Program-made: the position numbers and the translations under genes
Notes under the pieces: generated by a model
The model's database searches: none
What the model saw: only the letters and a program-made list of their open reading frames with translations
Told to the model about the DNA's origin: nothing
Source of the DNA: Jatrophihabitans sp.
Lineage (GTDB): Bacteria; Actinomycetota; Actinomycetes; Mycobacteriales; Jatrophihabitantaceae
DNA: 11,294 nt
Assembly: GCA_036488285.1 (NCBI GenBank)
Contig: DASXHV010000153.1
Location: 1-11,294 of the forward strand
Direction of reading: 5' to 3'
In this document: piece by piece, positions 205 through 11,294 of the stretch
Layout: every line of letters begins with the position of its first letter
How positions within the stretch are numbered: position 1 is the first letter of the stretch

Positions 205-1380
205 TCAGCCTTCCCCGGGCGCGTCGAGAGATCGCTGCGCGCGCTGCGGAGCATCGGCGTCGCTCTTGCCTGCCTCGTCGACGAAGCTGTCACCAATAGT
301 GCCGGCAAGACCGTTGCGAACCGAGTCGAGCAAGGCCATCCCCTGACCGGCCAACGACGCCACCACGCCGCCCAATCCGTCCGCGCCGTTGAGGACGGTC
401 AGATTCGCGCCCTGCAATCCCTCCGCTGCAGCGCGAAGCATGTCCGGGAGTTGCTCGATAACTCGCTGATCCAAGGCGATTCGGTCCTGCGCAGCGGCAG
501 CTTCTGCCGACAGTTTGGTCGCGTCGGCCTGCGCCCGGGCCAGGGTGATGATCCGTTCCGCTTCGGCCTGCGCCGGTTTGACCACCTCGGCGATGAGTTC
601 GGCCTCGCGTAGTTCGGCATTCTTCTGCGCGACGAGGGACCGTTCCACCAGCACGGCCTGCTGTGCCTGCGCGGCGGCAAGCGGTCCGGCCTGGGCCGCC
701 TTCTGCTGAGCCTGATCGATCTCGGCCTGGTACTGCGCCCGGGCTACCGCGGTTTGCCGGGCGTACTCGGCTTGGTTGCGGGCACTCTCCTGTTGAGCCA
801 TCGCGCTGGCCTGATCGGCGGCAGCCTGCGCCACGTGAGCTGCCTGGTTGACCGCTGCCTGGTGTGGCGCTGCGAGGGCCTGGATATATCCGACGCCCCG
901 GTCATCGATGCTGCTGATCTGCAGCGAATCGACCGCCAGTCCGATCTTTCCCATCTCGCCCTTGCTTGCGTCCAGGATCGCCTCGCCGAGCGTTTGCTGC
1001 TCTCGGATGATGGCCTCAACGGTCATGCTGCCGATGATGCTGCGCAGATGGCCGCTGAAGATTCGTCCTACCAACGTTGCCATTTGTGATTGATCGCCCT
1101 GGAACCGTCGCGCGGCCGCGGCGATGGATTCGTGGTCGTCGCCGACCTTGAACGCGATCACTGCCTGCACGGCGAGCGTCAGTCCCTGCTTGGTGTAGCA
1201 GTCTTCGATCACCTCGGCTTCCTGCATAGCCAGTGTCAACGTCGAGGCGCGAGAAACGATCGGCATCACGAACACGCCGTGACCGGTTACGATCTTGAAC
1301 TGCAATCCCGTCTCGCCGCGCTGCTTCTTTCCACTGATGAGCAAGGCCTCGTTGGGCGCAGGAACGCGATATCCGAACAT
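205..1380 (-). CDS. Flotillin-like SPFH/band-7 protein (391 aa) with an Ala/Gln/Glu-rich C-terminal coiled-coil region
   Basis: The N-terminal about 160 aa align by eye with bacterial flotillin SPFH domains (PNEALLISG...KIVTGHGVFVMPI...YTKQGL). A long AQQA/AEAE-rich region follows, typical of flotillin EA-repeat coiled coils. The ATG at 1380-1378 lies 2 nt after the stop of the upstream gene, and an AAGGG sits about 10 nt upstream. There is no N-terminal hydrophobic segment. Confidence 0.85.
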   Translation of the reverse strand: MFGYRVPAPNEALLISGKKQRGETGLQFKIVTGHGVFVMPIVSRASTLTLAMQEAEVIEDCYTKQGLTLAVQAVIAFKVGDDHESIAAAARRFQGDQSQMATLVGRIFSGHLRSIIGSMTVEAIIREQQTLGEAILDASKGEMGKIGLAVDSLQISSIDDRGVGYIQALAAPHQAAVNQAAHVAQAAADQASAMAQQESARNQAEYARQTAVARAQYQAEIDQAQQKAAQAGPLAAAQAQQAVLVERSLVAQKNAELREAELIAEVVKPAQAEAERIITLARAQADATKLSAEAAAAQDRIALDQRVIEQLPDMLRAAAEGLQGANLTVLNGADGLGGVVASLAGQGMALLDSVRNGLAGTIGDSFVDEAGKSDADAPQRAQRSLDAPGEG

Positions 1381-1382
1381 TT

Positions 1383-1637
1383 TCAGAACCCTTCATGTGG
1401 GCCGACGACATCGGCGATGCCCAATCCCGGTTGATCCCATGGCTCGACGTCGAGTTGGCGCGAGCCTCTGTTGTTGATGACGAGTACCTGCTGACCCACG
1501 GCGAGAGGCTCGCGATGGTAGGCGATGTAGTAGTGCGGCAGTCCTTCGACGACCACCCGCACCTCCCCGGGTAGGTCACCGCCACGAACTGGCGTGGTCA
1601 CGATGCCGACGCACCCGACCAGGGCAGTTTCGCTCAT
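1383..1637 (-). CDS. NfeD-like OB-fold (beta-barrel) domain protein, 84 aa, without a membrane anchor
   Basis: The alternating hydrophobic pattern LVGCVGIVTTPVRGGDLPGEVRVVVEGLPHYYIAYHREPLAVGQQVLVINNRGSRQLDVEP matches the C-terminal OB-fold of NfeD/YuaF-type proteins that partner SPFH proteins. The gene sits immediately upstream of, and 2 nt from, the flotillin gene. An in-frame stop (complement of 1644-1646) closes the frame just upstream of the ATG at 1637, so no TM region can be appended. Confidence 0.6.
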   Translation of the reverse strand: MSETALVGCVGIVTTPVRGGDLPGEVRVVVEGLPHYYIAYHREPLAVGQQVLVINNRGSRQLDVEPWDQPGLGIADVVGPHEGF

Positions 1638-1696: not shown

Positions 1697-2359
1697 TCAT
1701 AGGTTGTCGCTCGGCTGGCTCGGGGAGGCCATCGCGCCATGCTCCGACGAGCGGGCTTCTGACATCGCATAGCCGCCGGAGGCGACCGCAGCGACCCCGA
1801 TTACACCCAAGGCGGTGGCCAACACCATCAGCGCGCCCGCGACGTCGGTGCCGGCGTCCGCAGCGTCGTCCACGAACACCCGAGCGAGTCCAGTGCAGCT
1901 GATGTGCACCGGACCGGTGCTAGCGGCCTGGAAGGTAGCGAACTCGGTGAGATCTCGCGGGTCGTCCTTGGTCGACTGGATGCTCAGCTGCGTCTCGACG
2001 CCGGTGGGGTCGGTGGCGTGGCAGTTCAGTGCGGCGCCAGTCGTCAACAACCCCAACTTGGTCAACGCAGCGACACCGCCCGGCGCCGACAACTGATAGA
2101 CCTTGCCCGCTGTGAGCTGATAGGTCGCAGGGGGTATCGCGCCCTTGTCATAGGCATGGCGCTGGCCAGCGGCAAGCACCCGGGATCCACCGAAGGCAAC
2201 CAGCCCCAGCAACAGCACAACGACACCTGCGCCGAACCGCGCGGCGGGGGCCAGCCGCGGCCGTCGCGCAACCGAAGACCGCGGCGCGCCGGAGTAACCC
2301 GCGCGGTGCGGTTCAGGTCGTTCGATGTCGGCCATCTCCCAGATCCTCTCGTACGGCAC
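1697..2359 (-). CDS. Hypothetical membrane protein (about 212-220 aa) with two predicted TM helices flanking a roughly 130-aa extracytoplasmic domain containing two Cys
   Basis: The ORF has two hydrophobic stretches, GAGVVVLLLGLVAFGG and GALMVLATALGVIGVAAVASGG, separated by a polar domain. The start is uncertain: GTG at 2359 or ATG at 2335-2333 (MADIERPEP...). It lies 59 nt upstream of the NfeD-like gene on the same strand. Confidence 0.5.
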   Translation of the reverse strand: MPYERIWEMADIERPEPHRAGYSGAPRSSVARRPRLAPAARFGAGVVVLLLGLVAFGGSRVLAAGQRHAYDKGAIPPATYQLTAGKVYQLSAPGGVAALTKLGLLTTGAALNCHATDPTGVETQLSIQSTKDDPRDLTEFATFQAASTGPVHISCTGLARVFVDDAADAGTDVAGALMVLATALGVIGVAAVASGGYAMSEARSSEHGAMASPSQPSDNL

Positions 2360-2371
2360 GATGGACGTCTT

Positions 2372-3577
2372 GTGCGAGTTCTGATGGTGTCATGGGAGTT
2401 CCCGCCGGTCATCGTCGGCGGGCTGGGTCGTCATGTCTCAGATCTGGCTAACGCGCTGTCCGAGCAAGGCCACGACGTCCGGGTATTGACCAGAGGTACT
2501 GCCCGGCACTCAGTCACAGAGTCTGTCGATGGCGTGCCGGTGACCAGGGCCGCCGACGACGAGCTTGACATCGGTCTGGCCGCCGAATCGATCCTCGCCT
2601 GGACGCAGGCGTTCGAACATGCGCTGATCCGCGCCGGTCTGCAACTGCTCGATGCCTGGCGGCCCGACGTCATTCACGCCCATGACTGGCTGGTGGCTCA
2701 GACCAGCCGCACCCTGCAGGGGCGGTGTGGCGCTCCGCTCGTCGTCACGATGCACGCCACCGAATACGGTCGCCAGCAGGGCTGGCTCCAACAGCCGGTG
2801 CCGCGTGCCATCCATTCGGTCGAACGATGGCTGTGCCGTCGTGCCGACCGCGTCATCGCGTGCTCGCGATTCATGGCTGACCAGGTCGCGGCCATCGTCG
2901 ACCTTGCTCCCGGTTCAGTGGCCATCGTCGGCAACGGCATCGATCCCGCGCAGTGGAAGCCGGCCGGAGCCGACATCGAGGCGGCCCGCCGCCGGTACCT
3001 CACGGACGGGGCCACCGGCCCGTTGATTGCCTTCGCCGGCCGGCTCGTGCATGAGAAGGGCTTGCAGGAACTCATCAAAGCCTTGCCCCTGCTGCGTCCG
3101 GACCATCCCGGTCTGCGCGCCGTCGTCGTCGGACGAGGGCCGGACGAGGACGATCAGCGCGACCGGGCGCATCGCTACCAGGTCGCCGACCTGATCAGCT
3201 GGCCCGGATTCCTGCGCACCGCCGAACTCGCGGCGGTTCTCGGTGCCGCAGACGTCGTCGTGGTGCCTTCGTTGTACGAACCGTTCGGCATGGTCGCGTT
3301 GGAGTCCCAGGCCGTCGGAACGCCGGTCGCGGTCTCAGACACCGGCGGCCTGCGCGACCTGGTGGCCGACGGGCGCACCGGAGTTCGATTCGCGTCGAAG
3401 AATCCGGCCGCGATAGCCGATGCCGTCCGAACGCTGCTGGCCGATCCTGCGCGCACTGCGACGATGGCGGCCACCGCGCGCGATCACGCCCGGACTCGAT
3501 TCAGCCATGCGTCGGTGGCATCCCGGGTCGCTGAGATCTACTCCTCGGTCCAGAATGCGCCGTCCAGCACTCGCTGA
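2372..3577 (+). CDS. GT4-family (GT-B fold) retaining glycosyltransferase resembling actinobacterial Rv3032-type alpha-1,4-glucan glucosyltransferases
   Basis: The E-X7-E motif EPFGMVALE is present. The N-terminus ([22 protein letters not shown]) matches the Glyco_trans_4 / Glycos_transf_1 architecture, as do the HAHDW and ATEYGR motifs. The ORF is open from 1904, but the sensible start is GTG 2372 ([11 protein letters not shown]) or ATG 2384. The 3' end overlaps the convergent PLP-enzyme gene by 40 nt. Confidence 0.85.
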
Positions 3578-4632
3578 AGCTGCTCGGTGTGCGGGGCAAG
3601 GTCCATGCCACGCTCGGCTATCCAGTCGTCGGAGTAATACGTCTGGAGATAGCGCTCGCCGTTGTCGCAGATGAGCGTGACGATCGAGCCCGAAACACCG
3701 GCCGCACGCATCCCGGAGGCAACCCGCAGCGCGCCGACGAAATTCGTTCCGGTGGAGGCTCCGACCCGTTTGCCCAGTGCCTGCTGGAGCAACCGCATCG
3801 CTGCGATCGAGGCCGCATCGGGTACTGCGATCATCCGGTCCACCACATCACCGACGAAGCTCGGCTCGACACGAGGCCTTCCGATGCCTTCGATACGGGA
3901 ACCCTTGCCGGTCACGACCTTGTCACTGTTGGCCTGCCAGCCAGGCAGGAACGCCGAGTTCTCCACGTCCACGACACACAGCCGGGTCGCCAGCCGTCGG
4001 TAGCGGATGTAACGCCCGATGGTTGCCGACGTCCCACCGGTACCGGCGCCGACGACGACCCACTCCGGCACCGGGTGCCGTTCCAGGGCCAGCTGGGCAA
4101 AGATCGACTCGGCGATGTTGTTGTTGCCACGCCAGTCGGTGGCCCGTTCGGCAAAGGTGAACTGATCGATGTAGTGGCCGTTGCAGTCAGCGACCAGTCG
4201 GGCGGCCTCCGAGTACACGGTGTTCGGGTCCTCGACGAGATGGCAGCGGCCACCTTCGCGTTCGATCAGCGCGATCTTTTGCTCCGACGTCGATCGCGGC
4301 ATCACCGCCACGAACGGCAGTCCGAGCATCCGAGCGAAGTACGCCTCGCTGATCGCGGTCGATCCGGATGACGCCTCGACGACGGTAGTGCCCTCGCGCA
4401 GCCAGCCGTTGGCGAGGGCGTAGAGGAACAGCGATCGGGCCAGGCGGTGCTTCAGCGAACCGGTGGGGTGAGTGGATTCGTCCTTGAAATACAGGTCGAT
4501 CCCCCAGTCAGTTGGTAGCTCGAACCGGACCAGGTGGGTGTCCGCCGACCGGTTGGCATCCGCCTCGACCTTGCGCATCGCCTCGTCGCACCAGGCACGG
4601 GCGCTGCGCGAACTGCGGTCGAGATCAGTCAT
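3538..4632 (-). CDS. Fold-type-II PLP-dependent enzyme of the cysteine synthase / cystathionine beta-synthase family (364 aa) with non-canonical active-site residues
   Basis: The PLP-lysine motif reads GSLKHR and aligns with SVKDR of CysK. The glycine loop GAGTGGT binds the PLP phosphate. The substrate loop is SSGSTA where CysK has TSGNTG. The ATG at 4632-4630 overlaps the upstream stop as ATGA. Confidence 0.85.
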
Positions 4633-5375
4633 CGTCGGCGTCCCTCACCCTCGTCGGCACTCTGATCGGCATCGGCGATCAGTGTGGCAGCCGGCTGGAC
4701 ATCGACGGCACGGGCATCGGCAGCGGCGGAATGCTCATCCCGCCGACTGCGCAACACCCGGGCCGGCACGCCCGCGGCAATCGAGTACGCAGGCAGATTC
4801 CGGGTGACGACGGCGTTGGCCGCAACCACGCTCCCTTGCCCGACAGCGGAGCCGCGTACCACGGTGGCTTTGGTGCCGAGCCACACGTCGGCACCGATGC
4901 GCACCGGCGACTTGGCGATGCCCTGATCCTTGATCGGCACGTCGGCGTTGTCGAAGATGTGGTCGAAGTCGGCGATGTACACCATGTCGGCGATGATGGA
5001 CGCCGCCCCGACGCTGACATCGAGGTAGCAGTTCACGACGTCATGCCGGCCGAACACCACCTTGTCGCCGATCTGCAAGGTGCCCTCGTGGCAGCGCAGC
5101 GACGTCCCGTCGCCCAGATGCACCCAGCGACCAAGAATCAGCCGGCCGTAGCCGGGCCGCGCATAGAGCTCGACGCCCCTGCCGATAAAGACGAAACCTG
5201 CCGTGGTGATGTGCGGGTTGGCGATCCTGAAGCGCAGGAAGCGCCAGTACCGCAACAGATACCACGGTGTGTACGCGCGGTGTTCGAGCACCCACCGCAG
5301 GCTGGCGAGGGTGACGAATCGAGCTTGTCGCGGGTCTCTCGAGGTCGCTCGCCAGGCCCGCCACCGGTCGAACAT
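4629..5375 (-). CDS. Left-handed beta-helix (hexapeptide-repeat) O-acetyltransferase, LacA/Mac/NodL-like
   Basis: Hexapeptide repeats are followed by [32 protein letters not shown], which aligns with the catalytic His loop and the VW(I/L)G hallmark of sugar O-acetyltransferases. The ORF track extends the gene to 5441, but the ATG at 5375-5373 sits 2 nt after the upstream stop (5380-5378), which favours the shorter 248-aa form. Confidence 0.8.
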
Positions 5376-5377
5376 GA

Positions 5378-6073
5378 TCAGTTGGTGGTGGCGATCCGCG
5401 GGTACAGGATCTGATCGACCAGGTCGGCGGCCCGCTGGCACAACCAGGCGGCGCCGGCCTCCGTCAACTCCTCGACGGAGCCGTAGCCCCAGAGCGCGCC
5501 CGCGCAGGCGATCCCGTGCGCGGCGGCACCCAGGACGTCTTGGCTACGGTCGCCGACCATCAGGACTGTGCCCGGATCGGGGTTGCCCAGTCGGTCGAGC
5601 ACCGCGCCGATCACGAGCGCCTTGGAGTCGCGCTGCCCGTCCAGGGTGTCGCCGCCGATCGTCTCGAAGTGACCGGCCAGACCGAGATGTCCCAGGATCT
5701 CGGTGGCATGCTGCTCGGGCTTGCTGGTCGCGACCGCAAGTCGAATACCCTTGTCCGACAAGGCCTTCAAGACTTCTGCGATGCCATCGTAGACGGAGGT
5801 TTCGAACATCCCGCCATCGTCGACGTAATGCCGGCGGTACGCCGCGACCGCCTCCTCGACGCGATCCTTGCCGACCAGTGGCGGCAAGGTGTGCCAGAAC
5901 GGAGGACCGAGCAGCGAACGTGCTGTCGGCTCGTCCAGCCATGGCAGGCCAAGGTCGGCGAAAGCTGCCTCCAGGCAGCGGAGAATGCCGGGCGAGGAGT
6001 CGCTGAGCGTGCCGTCGAGATCGAACAGCACGGTGTCATAGATCGCGTGCGGGTTTGCTGCCGGCTCATTCAT
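5378..6073 (-). CDS. HAD-superfamily phosphatase (phosphoglycolate-phosphatase-like subfamily IA), 231 aa
   Basis: The HAD motifs are present: motif I FDLDGT, motif II ATS, motif IV GDRSQD. The ATG at 6073-6071 overlaps the methyltransferase stop (6072-6070) as ATGA. The upstream part of the 359-aa ORF lies in an alternate frame of the MTase gene and is rejected. Confidence 0.8.
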   Translation of the reverse strand: MNEPAANPHAIYDTVLFDLDGTLSDSSPGILRCLEAAFADLGLPWLDEPTARSLLGPPFWHTLPPLVGKDRVEEAVAAYRRHYVDDGGMFETSVYDGIAEVLKALSDKGIRLAVATSKPEQHATEILGHLGLAGHFETIGGDTLDGQRDSKALVIGAVLDRLGNPDPGTVLMVGDRSQDVLGAAAHGIACAGALWGYGSVEELTEAGAAWLCQRAADLVDQILYPRIATTN

Positions 6074-7044
6074 TCCGGCTTCGTCCCGGTGATTTCCAGG
6101 TTGTAGAACAGCCCGGCGGGCACCACTCTGGCCAACAGGTTCGAGTCGGCCGCATGCAGTCTCTTCCACATGCTGAAAGCGAAGTTCGCCCACCCGAATC
6201 CGAGCTTGCCTGGCGGCACGGCCGCCTCGAAGGTACGGACCGGCCAGCCGAACCATGCCGCGGTGAGTTCGTCGGTGCGGCTCTGAACGTCGATCGCTCC
6301 GGACCGCAACGCGGTTCGTCGTAGCTCGCCGGGGTCGAAGGTGTGGATGTCCACGACCGCCTCCAGCGCTGCTGCCCGAGAGGATTCGTCCAGCTCGGCC
6401 TTGGGCCGCGCCCATTGCCGCAGCTTGGGCAGCCGGGTCACGCGGGTGGTCGCCCACCAGGTGAATCGCGACAGCCGTCGCGCCACGATGTCGCCGTATC
6501 TCGTCGGTTCACCCGCGAAGACGAAGCGGCCACCCGGTTTGAGAACTCGAAGCACCTCGCGCAGGGCCTGCTCCACATCGGGAATGTGGTGCAGCACCGC
6601 ATGCCCGACCACCAGATCGAAACTGTCGTCGGGGTACGGGATCGACTCGGCGTCGGCCACTCGCCCCTCGATGTCCAATCCCAGCTTGGCGGCGTTGCCA
6701 GTGGCGACCTCGACCATGCCCGGACTCAGATCCGTGACATGCCCGGACTCGATGACGCCGGCCAGTTTGAGGTTCAGCAGAAAGAATCCGGTGCCGCAAC
6801 CCAGCTCCAGCGCCGAGGCGTACGGCCAGCCATCCGTGCCCGCGACGTGACTGAAGCGGTCCCGGGCGTAATCGATGCACCGTCGGTCGAAGCTGATGGA
6901 CCACTTCTCGTCATAGCTGCCCGATTCCCAGTCGTGGTACAGGACATTGGCGAGTTTCGGATCGCGCCAGGCCGCCTCGACCTGTTCGGCGGTGGCATGG
7001 GCACGAGGCTGGGCATGCGCCTGCGGCGCGGCTGCGGTCGTCAT
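6070..7044 (-). CDS. Class I SAM-dependent methyltransferase (324 aa)
   Basis: Motif I LELGCGTGFF is present, with an acidic residue downstream and the post-motif PGGRFVF. The ATG at 7044-7042 overlaps the echA stop (7046-7044) in a TGATG arrangement. The rest of the 544-aa ORF up to 7704 is an alternate frame of echA and is rejected. Confidence 0.85.
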   Translation of the reverse strand: MTTAAAPQAHAQPRAHATAEQVEAAWRDPKLANVLYHDWESGSYDEKWSISFDRRCIDYARDRFSHVAGTDGWPYASALELGCGTGFFLLNLKLAGVIESGHVTDLSPGMVEVATGNAAKLGLDIEGRVADAESIPYPDDSFDLVVGHAVLHHIPDVEQALREVLRVLKPGGRFVFAGEPTRYGDIVARRLSRFTWWATTRVTRLPKLRQWARPKAELDESSRAAALEAVVDIHTFDPGELRRTALRSGAIDVQSRTDELTAAWFGWPVRTFEAAVPPGKLGFGWANFAFSMWKRLHAADSNLLARVVPAGLFYNLEITGTKPE

Positions 7045-7823
7045 CAGTTTCCTACGAACTCGGCCTTGCCCGGTCCGTTCTCGATGAACGATTGGATGCC
7101 TCGCTGCTTGTCCTCGGTGGCGAACAGACTGGCGAACAAGTGGGATTCCAGCTTCAGCCCGGTTGACAGGTCGCTGTCGAGTCCTTGCTGGATAGCGGCT
7201 TTGGCGGCACGCAGAGCCAGCGACGGGCCGGCAGCGAACTTGGCCGCCATCGCGTGCGTGGTGCTGAGCACCTGATCGGCCTCCACGACGACGTCGACCA
7301 GGCCGATCTCGTGCGCCTCGGCAGCGTCGACGATCCGGCCGGTGTAGATCAGGTCCTTGGCCTTGGAAACCCCGACCAGGCGCGGCAGCCGCTGGGTGCC
7401 TCCCATTCCCGGGATGATCCCGAGCAGGATCTCCGGCTGACCCCATTTCGCGGTGTCGGCGCTGATGCGGAAGTCCGCGGTCATGGCCAGTTCGCAGCCG
7501 CCGCCGAGCGCAAAGCCGGTCACCGCTGCAATCACCGGCTTGGGGATCTGTGCAACCGAGTCGATCGAGCTCATGACCTCCTCGGCCCGCCGGGTGATGT
7601 CCTGCGGCGACATGGTGTGGAACTCCTTGACGTCCGCGCCTGCCACGAAGACCTTTTCGCCACCCCACAGGATGACCGCCCGGATGTCGTCGCGCCGGCT
7701 GCACTCCTCGGCGGCTGCACGCAGCTCTTGCTGCACCTGAGTGTTCAACGCGTTGACCGGCGGCCGATCGATCCGGATGGTGCCGACCGCGCCTTCGACC
7801 TCGAGGTGGACAAGTTCGCTCAT
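7044..7823 (-). CDS. Enoyl-CoA hydratase/isomerase (crotonase family), 259 aa
   Basis: The crotonase signature is present ([23 protein letters not shown]; GADVKEF). The ATG at 7823-7821 (MSELVHLEV...) is chosen over the ORF-track start at 7919. An AGG lies about 10 nt upstream. Confidence 0.85.
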
Positions 7824-7866: not shown

Positions 7867-8694
7867 TCACTGTGCCCTGGCGTAGAAGCGGCCGGCGTCG
7901 TTGTCCACCGACAAGGCAAGCCCGAACGCCTCGGACAGGTTCTGCGAGGTGAGCACGTCGTTGATCAGACCTTGGCTGACGACCTTGCCGTCCCTGAGCA
8001 GCATCGCGTGGCTGATGCCGAGCGGGATCTCCTCGACGTGGTGGGTCACCAGGATCATCGTCGGCGCATCCGGATCCGCGGCAAGCTTGGCCAGTCGGCG
8101 GAGCAGATCCTCACGACCGCCCAGGTCCATCCCGGCGGCAGGCTCGTCCAGCAGCAGCAATTCGGGGTCGGTCATCATCGCCCGGGCGATCTGCACCCGC
8201 TTGCGCTCCCCCTCGCTCAGCGTGCCGTAGCTGCGCTCGGTCAGGTCGCCCACTCCGAAGCGAGCCAGCAGCATCCGGGCCCGCCGGACATCGAGGCGAC
8301 CGTAGGCCTCCCGCCAGCGCCCGATCACGGCGTAGCCGGCCGAGACAACCACGTCCAACACGTTCTCGCCGCCAGGAATGCGCTGGGCCAGTGCAGCTGA
8401 GGCCAGCCCGATGCGGGGCCGTAGTTCGAACACGTCGACTGCCCCGAGCTGCTCGCCCAGAACACCGACGGTGCCCGCGCTGGGATGCATCGTGGTCGCC
8501 GCCAGTTGGAGAAGCGTCGTCTTGCCGGCGCCGTTGGCCCCCAGGATCACCCAACGCTCGTCGTCCTCGACGGTCCAGTCGATGCTGTCGAGCAGCAGCT
8601 TGGAGCCACGCCGGACACTCGCCTGCCGCATTTGCAGGATCGCGTCCGGATTCAATTCATCTTCTGGTGCTGGCACTGCCCCATCCAACCGCAT
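7867..8694 (-). CDS. ABC-type ATPase (275 aa) with no transmembrane/permease partner in the window
   Basis: The canonical ABC motifs are present: Walker A GANGAGKTT, signature variant LSEGERKRV, Walker B LLLLDEPAAGMD, and H-loop VTHH. The ATG at 8694-8692 is preceded by GAGGTG with 5-6 nt spacing. The longer ORF-track start (8763) would overlap glgX and is rejected. Confidence 0.85.
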   Translation of the reverse strand: MRLDGAVPAPEDELNPDAILQMRQASVRRGSKLLLDSIDWTVEDDERWVILGANGAGKTTLLQLAATTMHPSAGTVGVLGEQLGAVDVFELRPRIGLASAALAQRIPGGENVLDVVVSAGYAVIGRWREAYGRLDVRRARMLLARFGVGDLTERSYGTLSEGERKRVQIARAMMTDPELLLLDEPAAGMDLGGREDLLRRLAKLAADPDAPTMILVTHHVEEIPLGISHAMLLRDGKVVSQGLINDVLTSQNLSEAFGLALSVDNDAGRFYARAQ

Positions 8695-8750
8695 CTTCAC
8701 CTCGGACGATCTCCGACATAGCCGTTTGTACAGCGTAGGGTGCCGATTCG
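8695..8750. promoter_or_regulatory. 56-bp divergent intergenic region between the ABC ATPase and glgX; presumed to hold both promoters
   Basis: This is the only sizeable non-coding gap between divergent genes. It contains a TAGGGT (TANNNT-type -10 candidate) 12 nt upstream of the glgX ATG. It also contains an inverted repeat TCGGA-CGATC-TCCGA (8702-8716) that overlaps the ABC gene's GAGGTG ribosome-binding site. Confidence 0.3.
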
Positions 8751-10914
<2,164 letters not shown>

Positions 10915-10922
<8 letters not shown>

Positions 10923-11294
10923 ACTCGATACCGACAGCATCGGCGGCCAGGGCCGGATCGCGATTCGCCCGGTCATCGAGCAAGACCTGACGCTGTTCTA
11001 TGAGTTCCAATCCGATCAGGCCTCGGCGGCGATGGCCGGCTTCACGTCACGAGATCGCGACGCCGACCGGGCCCATTGGCACCAGATCATGGCCGACGAC
11101 TCCGCACGGACGTTTGCGGTGACCTACGACGACGTCGTGGTGGGCAACGTGGTCAGCTGGGGCGACGAGGGCGAGCGTGACCTGGGCTACTGGATCGACG
11201 CCCGGTACTTCGGACGAGGCATCGCGACCGAAGCGGTCCGGTTGTTTCTGAACATCGAGACAACCCGGCCGCTGTTTGCCCATGTGATGAAGAC
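10915..11294 (+). CDS. GNAT-family N-acetyltransferase (RimJ/RimL-like), 5' partial: it runs off the window end
   Basis: The frame is open from GTG 10915 to the window end. It translates MAELDTDSIGGQGRIAIRPVIEQDLTLFYEF...VVGNVVSWGDEGERDLGYWIDARYFGRGIATEAV..., a typical Acetyltransf_3-type GNAT. The GTG overlaps the glgX stop (GTGGCTGA). An upstream in-frame start cannot be excluded. Confidence 0.55.

Follow-up and report, generated by a model that had tools for sequence, protein, structure and literature searches.

A tightly packed five-gene run in Jatrophihabitans is probably an evolutionary mosaic that includes candidate genes for an MGLP-type glucan

Introduction

In Mycobacterium tuberculosis, Rv3030-Rv3037c constitute the published gene cluster for methylglucose lipopolysaccharide (MGLP), a polysaccharide with a proposed role in fatty-acid binding and in the modulation of fatty-acid synthesis, for which the reports that we found in the literature concern Mycobacterium and Nocardia only. 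Rv3032, an alpha-1,4-glucosyltransferase, elongates the glucan; Rv3030 is a probable 6-O-methyltransferase; and Rv3034c, convergent with Rv3032, is the proposed short-chain acyltransferase. The gene rv3041c heads an operon that also contains a conserved hypothetical gene and echA17, and Rv3038c is a gene of unknown function, predicted to be essential and counted in the oleic-acid resistome of M. tuberculosis; the report describing it is silent on MGLP. Here we compare with this region a locus of Jatrophihabitans sp. (in the NCBI taxonomy, order Jatrophihabitantales, class Actinomycetes). It lies on a stretch of 11,294 nt, called the window below, that is the whole of a contig from a metagenome-assembled genome (MAG), with the contig edge at base 1. 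Its minus strand carries five genes for enzymes of different classes in a head-to-tail run.

An earlier note on this DNA, made from its letters, took the tight coupling of the five genes to mean one obligate common pathway, and proposed either a glycan-tailoring module reminiscent of MGLP or a serine-derived pathway to a beta-substituted alanine. Our analysis leads to a different view. The five genes are probably the distal part of a single operon that is an evolutionary mosaic and not one pathway; two of them, for a methyltransferase and an acyltransferase, would serve an MGLP-type glucan together with a neighbouring GT4 glycosyltransferase gene. The run as such is an ordinary, lineage-specific rearranged instance of a known conserved neighbourhood, made up of known enzyme families.

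The locus follows the gene order of the mycobacterial MGLP region

The genes that enter the comparison are listed below, with positions in the window and protein lengths in amino acids (aa).

8694..7867, minus strand: ATP-binding protein of an ATP-binding cassette (ABC) transporter, 275 aa; Pfam ABC_tran, 8e-26
7823..7044, minus strand: enoyl-CoA hydratase or crotonase (ECH), 259 aa; Pfam ECH_1, 1e-67
7044..6070, minus strand: methyltransferase (MT), 324 aa; Pfam Methyltransf_11, 7e-27
6073..5378, minus strand: HAD protein, 231 aa; Pfam HAD_2, 3e-27
5375..4629, minus strand: left-handed beta-helix (LbH) acyltransferase, 248 aa; Pfam Hexapep, 4e-7
4632..3538, minus strand: pyridoxal phosphate (PLP) enzyme, 364 aa; Pfam PALP, 5e-56
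2381..3577, plus strand: GT4 glycosyltransferase, 398 aa; Pfam Glycos_transf_1 and Glyco_transf_4
8751..10922, plus strand: GlgX glycogen debranching enzyme, 723 aa; NCBIfam TIGR02100

The five head-to-tail open reading frames (ORFs) between 3538 and 7823, with an overlap or a 2-nt gap at each junction, are intact and their coordinates match those first reported, and the assignments to the enoyl-CoA hydratase, S-adenosylmethionine (SAM)-dependent methyltransferase, HAD and LbH families are upheld by Pfam matches and intact catalytic motifs. Homologues of each of the five proteins occur at 60-90% identity in other genomes; families at this level of identity, strong Pfam matches and intact motifs together indicate that the five ORFs are real and not chance.

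The link to Rv3030-Rv3034c that the earlier note had drawn proved a good lead, because the same gene order runs from GT4 through LbH, MT and crotonase to the ABC ATPase. The ABC ATPase (Rv3041c), the crotonase (echA17 = Rv3039c), MT (at the position of Rv3038c) and LbH (Rv3034c) keep both order and orientation, and in both regions these same-strand genes converge on GT4 (Rv3032). In Jatrophihabitans telluris and Saccharothrix the correspondence extends beyond GT4 to a GH57 gene (Rv3031), a second MT of 246-248 aa (Rv3030) and electron-transfer flavoprotein (ETF) genes (Rv3028c/29c); in Saccharothrix, a gene with a THUMP-like domain between MT and LbH takes the position of Rv3037c. The window differs from the mycobacterial region in having no counterpart of Rv3035, Rv3036c, Rv3037c or Rv3040c, and in having two extra interleaved genes, for HAD and a PLP enzyme of the Cds1 type. 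Judged by family and position, the window would contain the MGLP-cluster feature of an Rv3032-type GT4 gene adjoining tailoring genes; judged by sequence and fold neighbours and position, it would also contain a sugar-directed LbH acyltransferase of the Rv3034c type. Rv3038c itself is annotated in H37Rv as a methyltransferase of ~327 aa, while the papers that we found list it only among genes of unknown function.

MT, LbH and GT4 appear to have left the locus together at least three times

Loci of close relatives were chosen by the PLP protein, to avoid bias toward MT and LbH. With one further locus from an LbH-anchored scan, they fall into four types.

Type A, ABC-ECH-MT-HAD-LbH-PLP / GT4: the window, L081-L083, J. 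telluris (L084) and L091
Type B, ABC-ECH-HAD-PLP-membrane protein, without MT, LbH, GT4, GH57 and the second MT: L085, L089, L090 and L093
Type C, ECH-MT-LbH-PLP / GT4, without HAD: L094
Type D, ECH-MT-HAD-LbH / GT4, without PLP: L075 (from the LbH-anchored scan)

The flanking proteins of type A, B and C loci are 73-87% identical to those of the window, and the type B hosts include Jatrophihabitans sp. DSM 45814 (L085) and a Frankiales MAG (L089). ECH is present in all four types. MT and LbH are never separated in the PLP-anchored loci, being either both there or both gone, and GT4 is absent together with them in the type B loci. HAD and PLP, by contrast, vary independently of MT and LbH and of each other.

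The relationships among these loci come from a neighbour-joining tree of concatenated GlgX, ABC ATPase, ECH and PLP proteins (1353 ungapped columns; bootstrap by explicit split counting). Type A and type B loci form sister pairs, namely the window with L093 (100%), L084 with L085 (99%) and L091 with L090 (100%), and a split uniting the type B loci as a monophyletic group gains 0% support. Because the lineages further off all carry MT, LbH and GT4, the simplest reading is that the three genes were removed together from the locus on at least three occasions, each from its own position between genes that were retained. Searches of the type B loci for pseudogene remnants of MT, LbH and GT4 gave chance-level matches only. 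An attempt to infer from lists of the top 120 homologues that the DSM 45814 chromosome lacks MT and LbH was discarded as invalid, since the lists miss the MT and LbH genes that L094 does have.

The genes that became neighbours after the loss of MT and LbH are themselves tightly packed: gaps range from 4 to 84 nt, and HAD overlaps PLP by 4 nt in L089. Since tight junctions re-form in this way between new neighbours, packing is a property of the locus or genome and no sign of a common pathway; the overlap of M. tuberculosis cds1 with an unrelated gene, rv3683, points the same way. The claim that tight coupling reflects an obligate common pathway is contradicted by the four type B relatives, in which identical flanks enclose ECH-HAD-PLP without MT, LbH and GT4. 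The earlier note had held that absence of the cassette between identical flanks would speak for random juxtaposition; in the type B loci a part of the cassette is missing in this setting, and further incomplete versions occur in L094 (without HAD) and L075 (without PLP).

Some of these loci carry insertions. In L081 (11957-15299), and also in L082 and L083, the PLP gene is followed at once, at the place expected for GT4, by a gene with a GmrSD_N domain and by fragments of transposase genes; this suggests that GT4 was displaced or destroyed in that lineage when a mobile element inserted. In L085 (3847-6319), four unrelated genes (YjbR, GreA-like, adenosine deaminase and cold-shock) lie between the ABC ATPase gene and ECH, so that the ABC-ECH link is not obligate.

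The ECH-MT-LbH / GT4 arrangement recurs across several orders

For a wider survey, one genome per species was scanned with an alignment of LbH homologues (585 relatives), and the window proteins were searched by tblastn against the best 80 of these 585 loci with 10-kb flanks. The order that recurs is GlgX(-) / ABC ECH MT ... LbH(+) / GT4 GH57 MT(-). Its ECH-MT-LbH / GT4 part is found in Pseudonocardiales, Jiangellaceae, a Frankia symbiont, Motilibacteraceae and Mycobacteriales MAGs; the ABC gene is absent from several, and the variable genes between MT and LbH take up 0 to 6 kb. Among the best 80 loci, MT is present in 44, GT4 in 56 and GH57 in 43. In L084, L092, L053, L055 and L049 the GT4 orthologue (42-62% identity) has GH57 and an Rv3030-like MT after it, and one locus (L024) keeps the ABC gene, MT and LbH with ECH absent.

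HAD accompanies LbH in a single one of the 80 loci (L075) and the PLP gene in none. Conservation of the five-gene order, which the earlier note had proposed to look for in other actinobacteria, holds within a narrow compass: J. telluris, L081-L083 and L091 keep it, with 4-nt overlaps and 56-81% protein identity to the window, but the LbH-anchored loci do not.

MT is a generic class I methyltransferase and LbH resembles sugar O-acetyltransferases

MT is a class I SAM-dependent methyltransferase with an intact SAM motif (ELGCGTG) and a conserved C-terminal extension of ~140 aa. Its family matches in Pfam, NCBIfam and the PDB sequences are to generic class I enzymes only, and its AlphaFold2 (AF2) model has a pLDDT of 57, too poor for comparison of folds. 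Orthologues 64-80% identical to it lie directly after ECH in many orders. The idea that MT is a paralogue of the Rv3030-like MT was rejected: the part common to the two is the generic SAM-binding core, with 28% identity over 108 aa.

LbH is a left-handed beta-helix O-acyltransferase with a conserved N-terminal helical region, in which Pfam finds Hexapep domains only. Its best NCBIfam matches are of the WbbJ, WcaF and maltose O-acetyltransferase types, and its PDB sequence matches include Vat and the galactoside and maltose O-acetyltransferases. Foldseek neighbours of the AF2 model (pLDDT 77.7) are the polysialic-acid O-acetyltransferases NeuO and OatWY, the maltose and galactoside transacetylases, and the sugar N-acyltransferase AntD. 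Both CysE models score far below their cutoffs (TIGR01172, 26.9 bits against 210.65; PRK11132, 27.4 against 397), as does the EpsC model (43 bits against 150), and no serine acetyltransferase is among the 33 PDB sequence matches or the top 50 fold matches. Sequence and model thus suggest that LbH resembles sugar O-acetyltransferases and not CysE.

The start of LbH bears on the junction with HAD. Across fifteen aligned homologues conservation begins at residue 19, which favours the ATG at 5375 over the GTG at 5291 of the NCBI annotation; the resulting 220-aa protein would be deprived of the conserved N-terminal helical region, in which the AF2 model places helices at residues 23-31 and 37-52. 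A start at GTG 5441 was rejected, since it would overlap HAD by 64 nt and the extra residues are without conservation. We also considered a 384-aa ORF (P0042) on an 84,716-nt metagenome contig, which joins the C-terminal half of HAD to LbH. Its linker reads like a frameshifted HAD C-terminus, and the ORF is probably an assembly or frameshift artefact and not a true HAD-LbH fusion.

The crotonase, HAD and PLP enzymes belong to families with mycobacterial members

ECH has both catalytic glutamates, E111 (GGGCE) and E131 (PEI), which are invariant in 14 orthologues, and matches the Pfam ECH_1 domain with 228 bits. Its closest PDB sequences are EchA8 (213 bits) and the M. marinum EchA17 structure (197 bits), and it falls under every NCBIfam equivalog cutoff. 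By its sequence it is a canonical short-chain crotonase, as near to EchA8 as to EchA17 of mycobacteria; in following the ABC ATPase gene it takes the position of echA17.

The HAD protein is of the COG0546 type (HAD-IA) and has all four HAD motifs, among them DLDGT, TSK and GDRSQD. Among PDB entries it matches best the PtkA HAD core of M. tuberculosis (Rv2232; 6f2x): the alignment spans 195 residues, scores 140 bits and brings the DxDGT, TSK and GDRSxD motifs into register. Neither SerB nor MpgP/GpgP is among the 25 NCBIfam families that it matches at E<=0.001, and it stays under all NCBIfam equivalog cutoffs, the top match being phosphoglycolate phosphatase (106 bits against 180). Unlike PtkA, it is without a disordered domain at the N-terminus.

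The PLP enzyme had been called CysK-like. This stands insofar as it is a fold-type II enzyme of the CysK/CBS superfamily, with a Schiff-base lysine (Lys61, in SLKHR) and a glycine loop (GAGTGGT); it does not hold at the level of family. The protein falls over 200 bits short of the CysK and CysM cutoffs (CysK, 117-152 bits against cutoffs of 351-387), reaches 141 bits on the SbnA model (cutoff 350) and 100-150 bits on CBS models, likewise far below their cutoffs, and has CBS as its nearest solved structure (95 bits). It passes the NCBIfam equivalog model for Cds1 (NF052478) with 611.9 bits, over model positions 1-353 of 354, a score just 12 bits over the cutoff of 600. Its sequence thus places it in the family of Cds1 (Rv3684), the L-cysteine desulfhydrase of M. 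tuberculosis that converts cysteine to pyruvate and H2S. For the M. tuberculosis enzyme a Km for cysteine of 11 mM is reported, and the physiological substrate may therefore differ.

The genomic settings of the two enzymes are dissimilar, ponA2-rv3683-cds1 in M. tuberculosis as against LbH-PLP / GT4 in the window, and in M. tuberculosis cds1 shares nucleotides with the stop codon that ends rv3683, an unrelated gene upstream. Homologues of the PLP enzyme are 70-84% identical across several orders; in Planosporangium, Actinoalloteichus and Allonocardiopsis they stand alone in unrelated neighbourhoods (70-73%).

The evidence favours a mosaic operon over a single pathway

On the reading that we prefer, GT4 would extend an alpha-1,4 glucan chain, MT would O-methylate its glucose with SAM, and LbH would esterify glucose hydroxyls from acyl-CoA; in relatives, the GH57 branching enzyme and the Rv3030-like MT would join the same set. 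The product would be a cytoplasmic, methylated and short-chain-acylated alpha-glucan of the MGLP type. ECH, in the echA17 position, would be a neighbour of long standing and independent of the glycan module, and HAD and PLP would likewise act independently of it, with PLP predicted, as a Cds1-type enzyme, to convert L-Cys to pyruvate, NH3 and H2S. HAD and PLP would have been inserted later, in the Jatrophihabitans lineage, into the older ECH-MT-LbH / GT4 arrangement, HAD between MT and LbH and PLP between LbH and GT4, each being dispensable alone. The family identities, the geometry of the junctions, the synteny and the patterns of presence and absence are observed directly; co-transcription, one-to-one orthology with the M. 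tuberculosis genes, the substrates of the individual enzymes and the glycan product are what we infer from these comparisons. Of the glycan-tailoring proposal in the earlier note, the part that concerns MT and LbH survives; the crotonase, HAD and PLP enzymes are not tied to them.

A more tentative step, which we regard as a possibility worth stating but would not bet on, is that the Rv3038c-type MT may be a missing methyltransferase of MGLP-type polysaccharide synthesis. We propose it for MGLP because in Jatrophihabitantales MT always occurs with LbH and, except in L081-L083, with GT4, and because the three were lost together at least three times while the genes interleaved among them stayed. 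Given the proposed binding of fatty acids by MGLP, this co-inheritance also fits the predicted essentiality of rv3038c and its place in the oleic-acid resistome.

Several points weigh against the mosaic reading and its MGLP component. GH57 and an Rv3030-like MT are absent beside GT4 within the window, whose contig starts at base 1, and we found no report in the literature of a polymethylated polysaccharide from Jatrophihabitans. The equivalence of the window genes to Rv3041c, Rv3039c, Rv3038c, Rv3034c and Rv3032 is suggested by position, orientation, family and length, and in mycobacteria the role of Rv3034c is itself a proposal and Rv3038c has no assigned function. For the crotonase, a profile of the 14 syntenic orthologues, compared with PDB sequences, gives EchA8 267 bits and EchA17 260 and so does not separate the two. 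Loss as used here means loss from this locus, not from the whole genome. The co-variation of GT4 is imperfect, since L081-L083 keep MT and LbH though mobile-element genes sit at the place of GT4. Finally, the adjacency of ECH and MT across orders could reflect a functional link that becomes dispensable.

That adjacency also speaks for a single obligate pathway in which all five enzymes make one product, with the crotonase, phosphatase and PLP enzyme supplying, for example, an acyl donor or an aglycone. Such a pathway would account for the overlap or 2-nt gap at every junction and for the five-gene order kept with 4-nt overlaps in J. telluris, L081-L083 and L091. We nevertheless consider it very unlikely. 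In four loci, through at least three independent events, ECH-HAD-PLP persists without MT and LbH; elsewhere MT-LbH-PLP occurs without HAD (L094), MT-HAD-LbH without PLP (L075) and ABC-MT-LbH without ECH (L024). PLP is missing from 80 and HAD from 79 of the 80 LbH-anchored loci, and the junctions that seem to argue for the pathway re-form between whatever genes end up adjacent. Somewhat less implausible, though still unlikely, is a functional unit of ECH, HAD, PLP and the downstream membrane protein, for example in cysteine or thioester catabolism, with MT and LbH as interlopers. The compact same-strand run of these genes does persist in four loci after the loss of MT, LbH and GT4, in one of them (L089) with the 4-nt HAD/PLP overlap, and in all four the sulfur-trafficking genes iscS and mnmA lie a few genes away. 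The members of this unit are nonetheless separable: HAD is absent in L094 and PLP in L075, the solitary PLP homologues described above belong to three other orders, ECH precedes MT in orders without HAD and PLP, and in L085 the four inserted genes part ABC from ECH.

The route to a beta-substituted alanine, in which HAD would act as a phosphoserine phosphatase, LbH as a serine O-acetyltransferase and PLP in beta-replacement, with MT and ECH modifying the product, is one to which we give hardly any credence. In its favour, an LbH acyltransferase gene adjoins a fold-type II PLP gene, as in a CysE/CysK pair, and is translationally coupled to it (4-nt overlap in the window, L081 and L084); as a member of the CysK/CBS superfamily, the PLP enzyme has weaker matches to the beta-replacement enzymes SbnA, O-ureido-serine synthase and CmnB; and beta-replacement by a Cds1-type enzyme may yet occur. 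Against it, the PLP enzyme passes the Cds1 model and fails those for CysK, CysM and SbnA, while LbH fails the CysE and EpsC models and has carbohydrate acetyltransferases as neighbours. HAD has no SerB match. The pairing of LbH with PLP is confined to one lineage, each gene being widespread without the other, and the three genes vary independently: LbH orthologues lack a PLP gene in all 80 loci, L094 keeps LbH and PLP without HAD, and four loci keep PLP with HAD without LbH.

If the more tentative proposal for the Rv3038c-type MT is right, MGLP-like fatty-acid-binding glucans would extend well beyond Mycobacterium and Nocardia to Jatrophihabitans, Pseudonocardiales, Jiangellaceae and Frankia. 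The repeated joint loss of MT, LbH and GT4 amounts to a natural experiment that ties the Rv3038c-type MT to MGLP-type glycan genes and, by the same token, argues that the echA17-type crotonase lies outside that pathway. It also offers a strain pair for the study of methylglucose polysaccharides outside mycobacteria, since the module is present in J. telluris and missing at this locus from DSM 45814. More generally, the one operon here would interleave at least two unrelated functions, a caution that start/stop overlaps in a high-GC actinobacterial operon do not prove a common pathway.

Junctions and transcriptional layout

The ECH and MT genes overlap by 1 nt (TGATG), and MT and HAD, like LbH and PLP, by 4 nt (ATGA); between HAD and LbH there is a gap of 2 nt, given the LbH start at ATG 5375. 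The ABC ATPase gene lies on the same strand as ECH with 43 nt between them, and the operon probably runs ABC ATPase -> ECH -> MT -> HAD -> LbH -> PLP, with the ABC gene first. Co-transcription and translational coupling of these genes are plausible from this layout.

The 3' ends of PLP and GT4 converge and overlap by 40 nt (3538-3577), which leaves no space for a terminator between the two genes; a convergent overlap of this kind is found also in J. telluris (34 nt) and L094 (28 nt). At the other end, a spacer of 56 nt (8695-8750) parts the ABC gene from the divergent GlgX gene, and two promoters must overlap in it, provided that both starts are correct. A scan of the window found no sigma-70-like promoter sites, in this spacer or elsewhere. 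Terminator-like sites occurred at the level of shuffled sequence, all inside genes and none at the five-gene junctions, and an Rfam scan of the window returned no RNA families. The G+C content is even, at 60-70% along the window.

Flanking genes and minor features

The ABC ATPase has an intact Walker A motif (GANGAGKT) and signature (LSEG), and 275-aa homologues occupy the same position in L081, L084, L089 and L093. GlgX scores 963 bits on TIGR02100 (cutoff 641) and is the divergent neighbour in 22 of the 80 LbH-anchored loci and in all close relatives. GT4 stays under the MshA and GlgA cutoffs in NCBIfam. Three further genes lie beyond it.

1697..2359, minus strand: membrane protein of unassigned function, 220 aa as listed, with a start possibly further downstream
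1383..1637: NfeD-like gene
205..1380: flotillin/SPFH gene, separated by a 2-nt gap from the NfeD-like gene

The membrane protein has no Pfam or NCBIfam match. Its gene is kept beside GT4 and, in type B loci, stands directly after the PLP gene; tblastn finds orthologues (36-60%) at the corresponding position in L075, L084, L085, L089-L091, L093 and L094. The NfeD-like and flotillin genes occupy the place that GH57 and the Rv3030-like MT take in J. telluris and many other genomes.

Two long antisense ORFs were also noted, one of 658 aa opposite glgX (9000-10976, minus strand) and one of 300 aa antisense to LbH and HAD (4512-5414, plus strand). Because both lie wholly inside opposite-strand genes with strong homology, we read them as artefacts of high G+C content.

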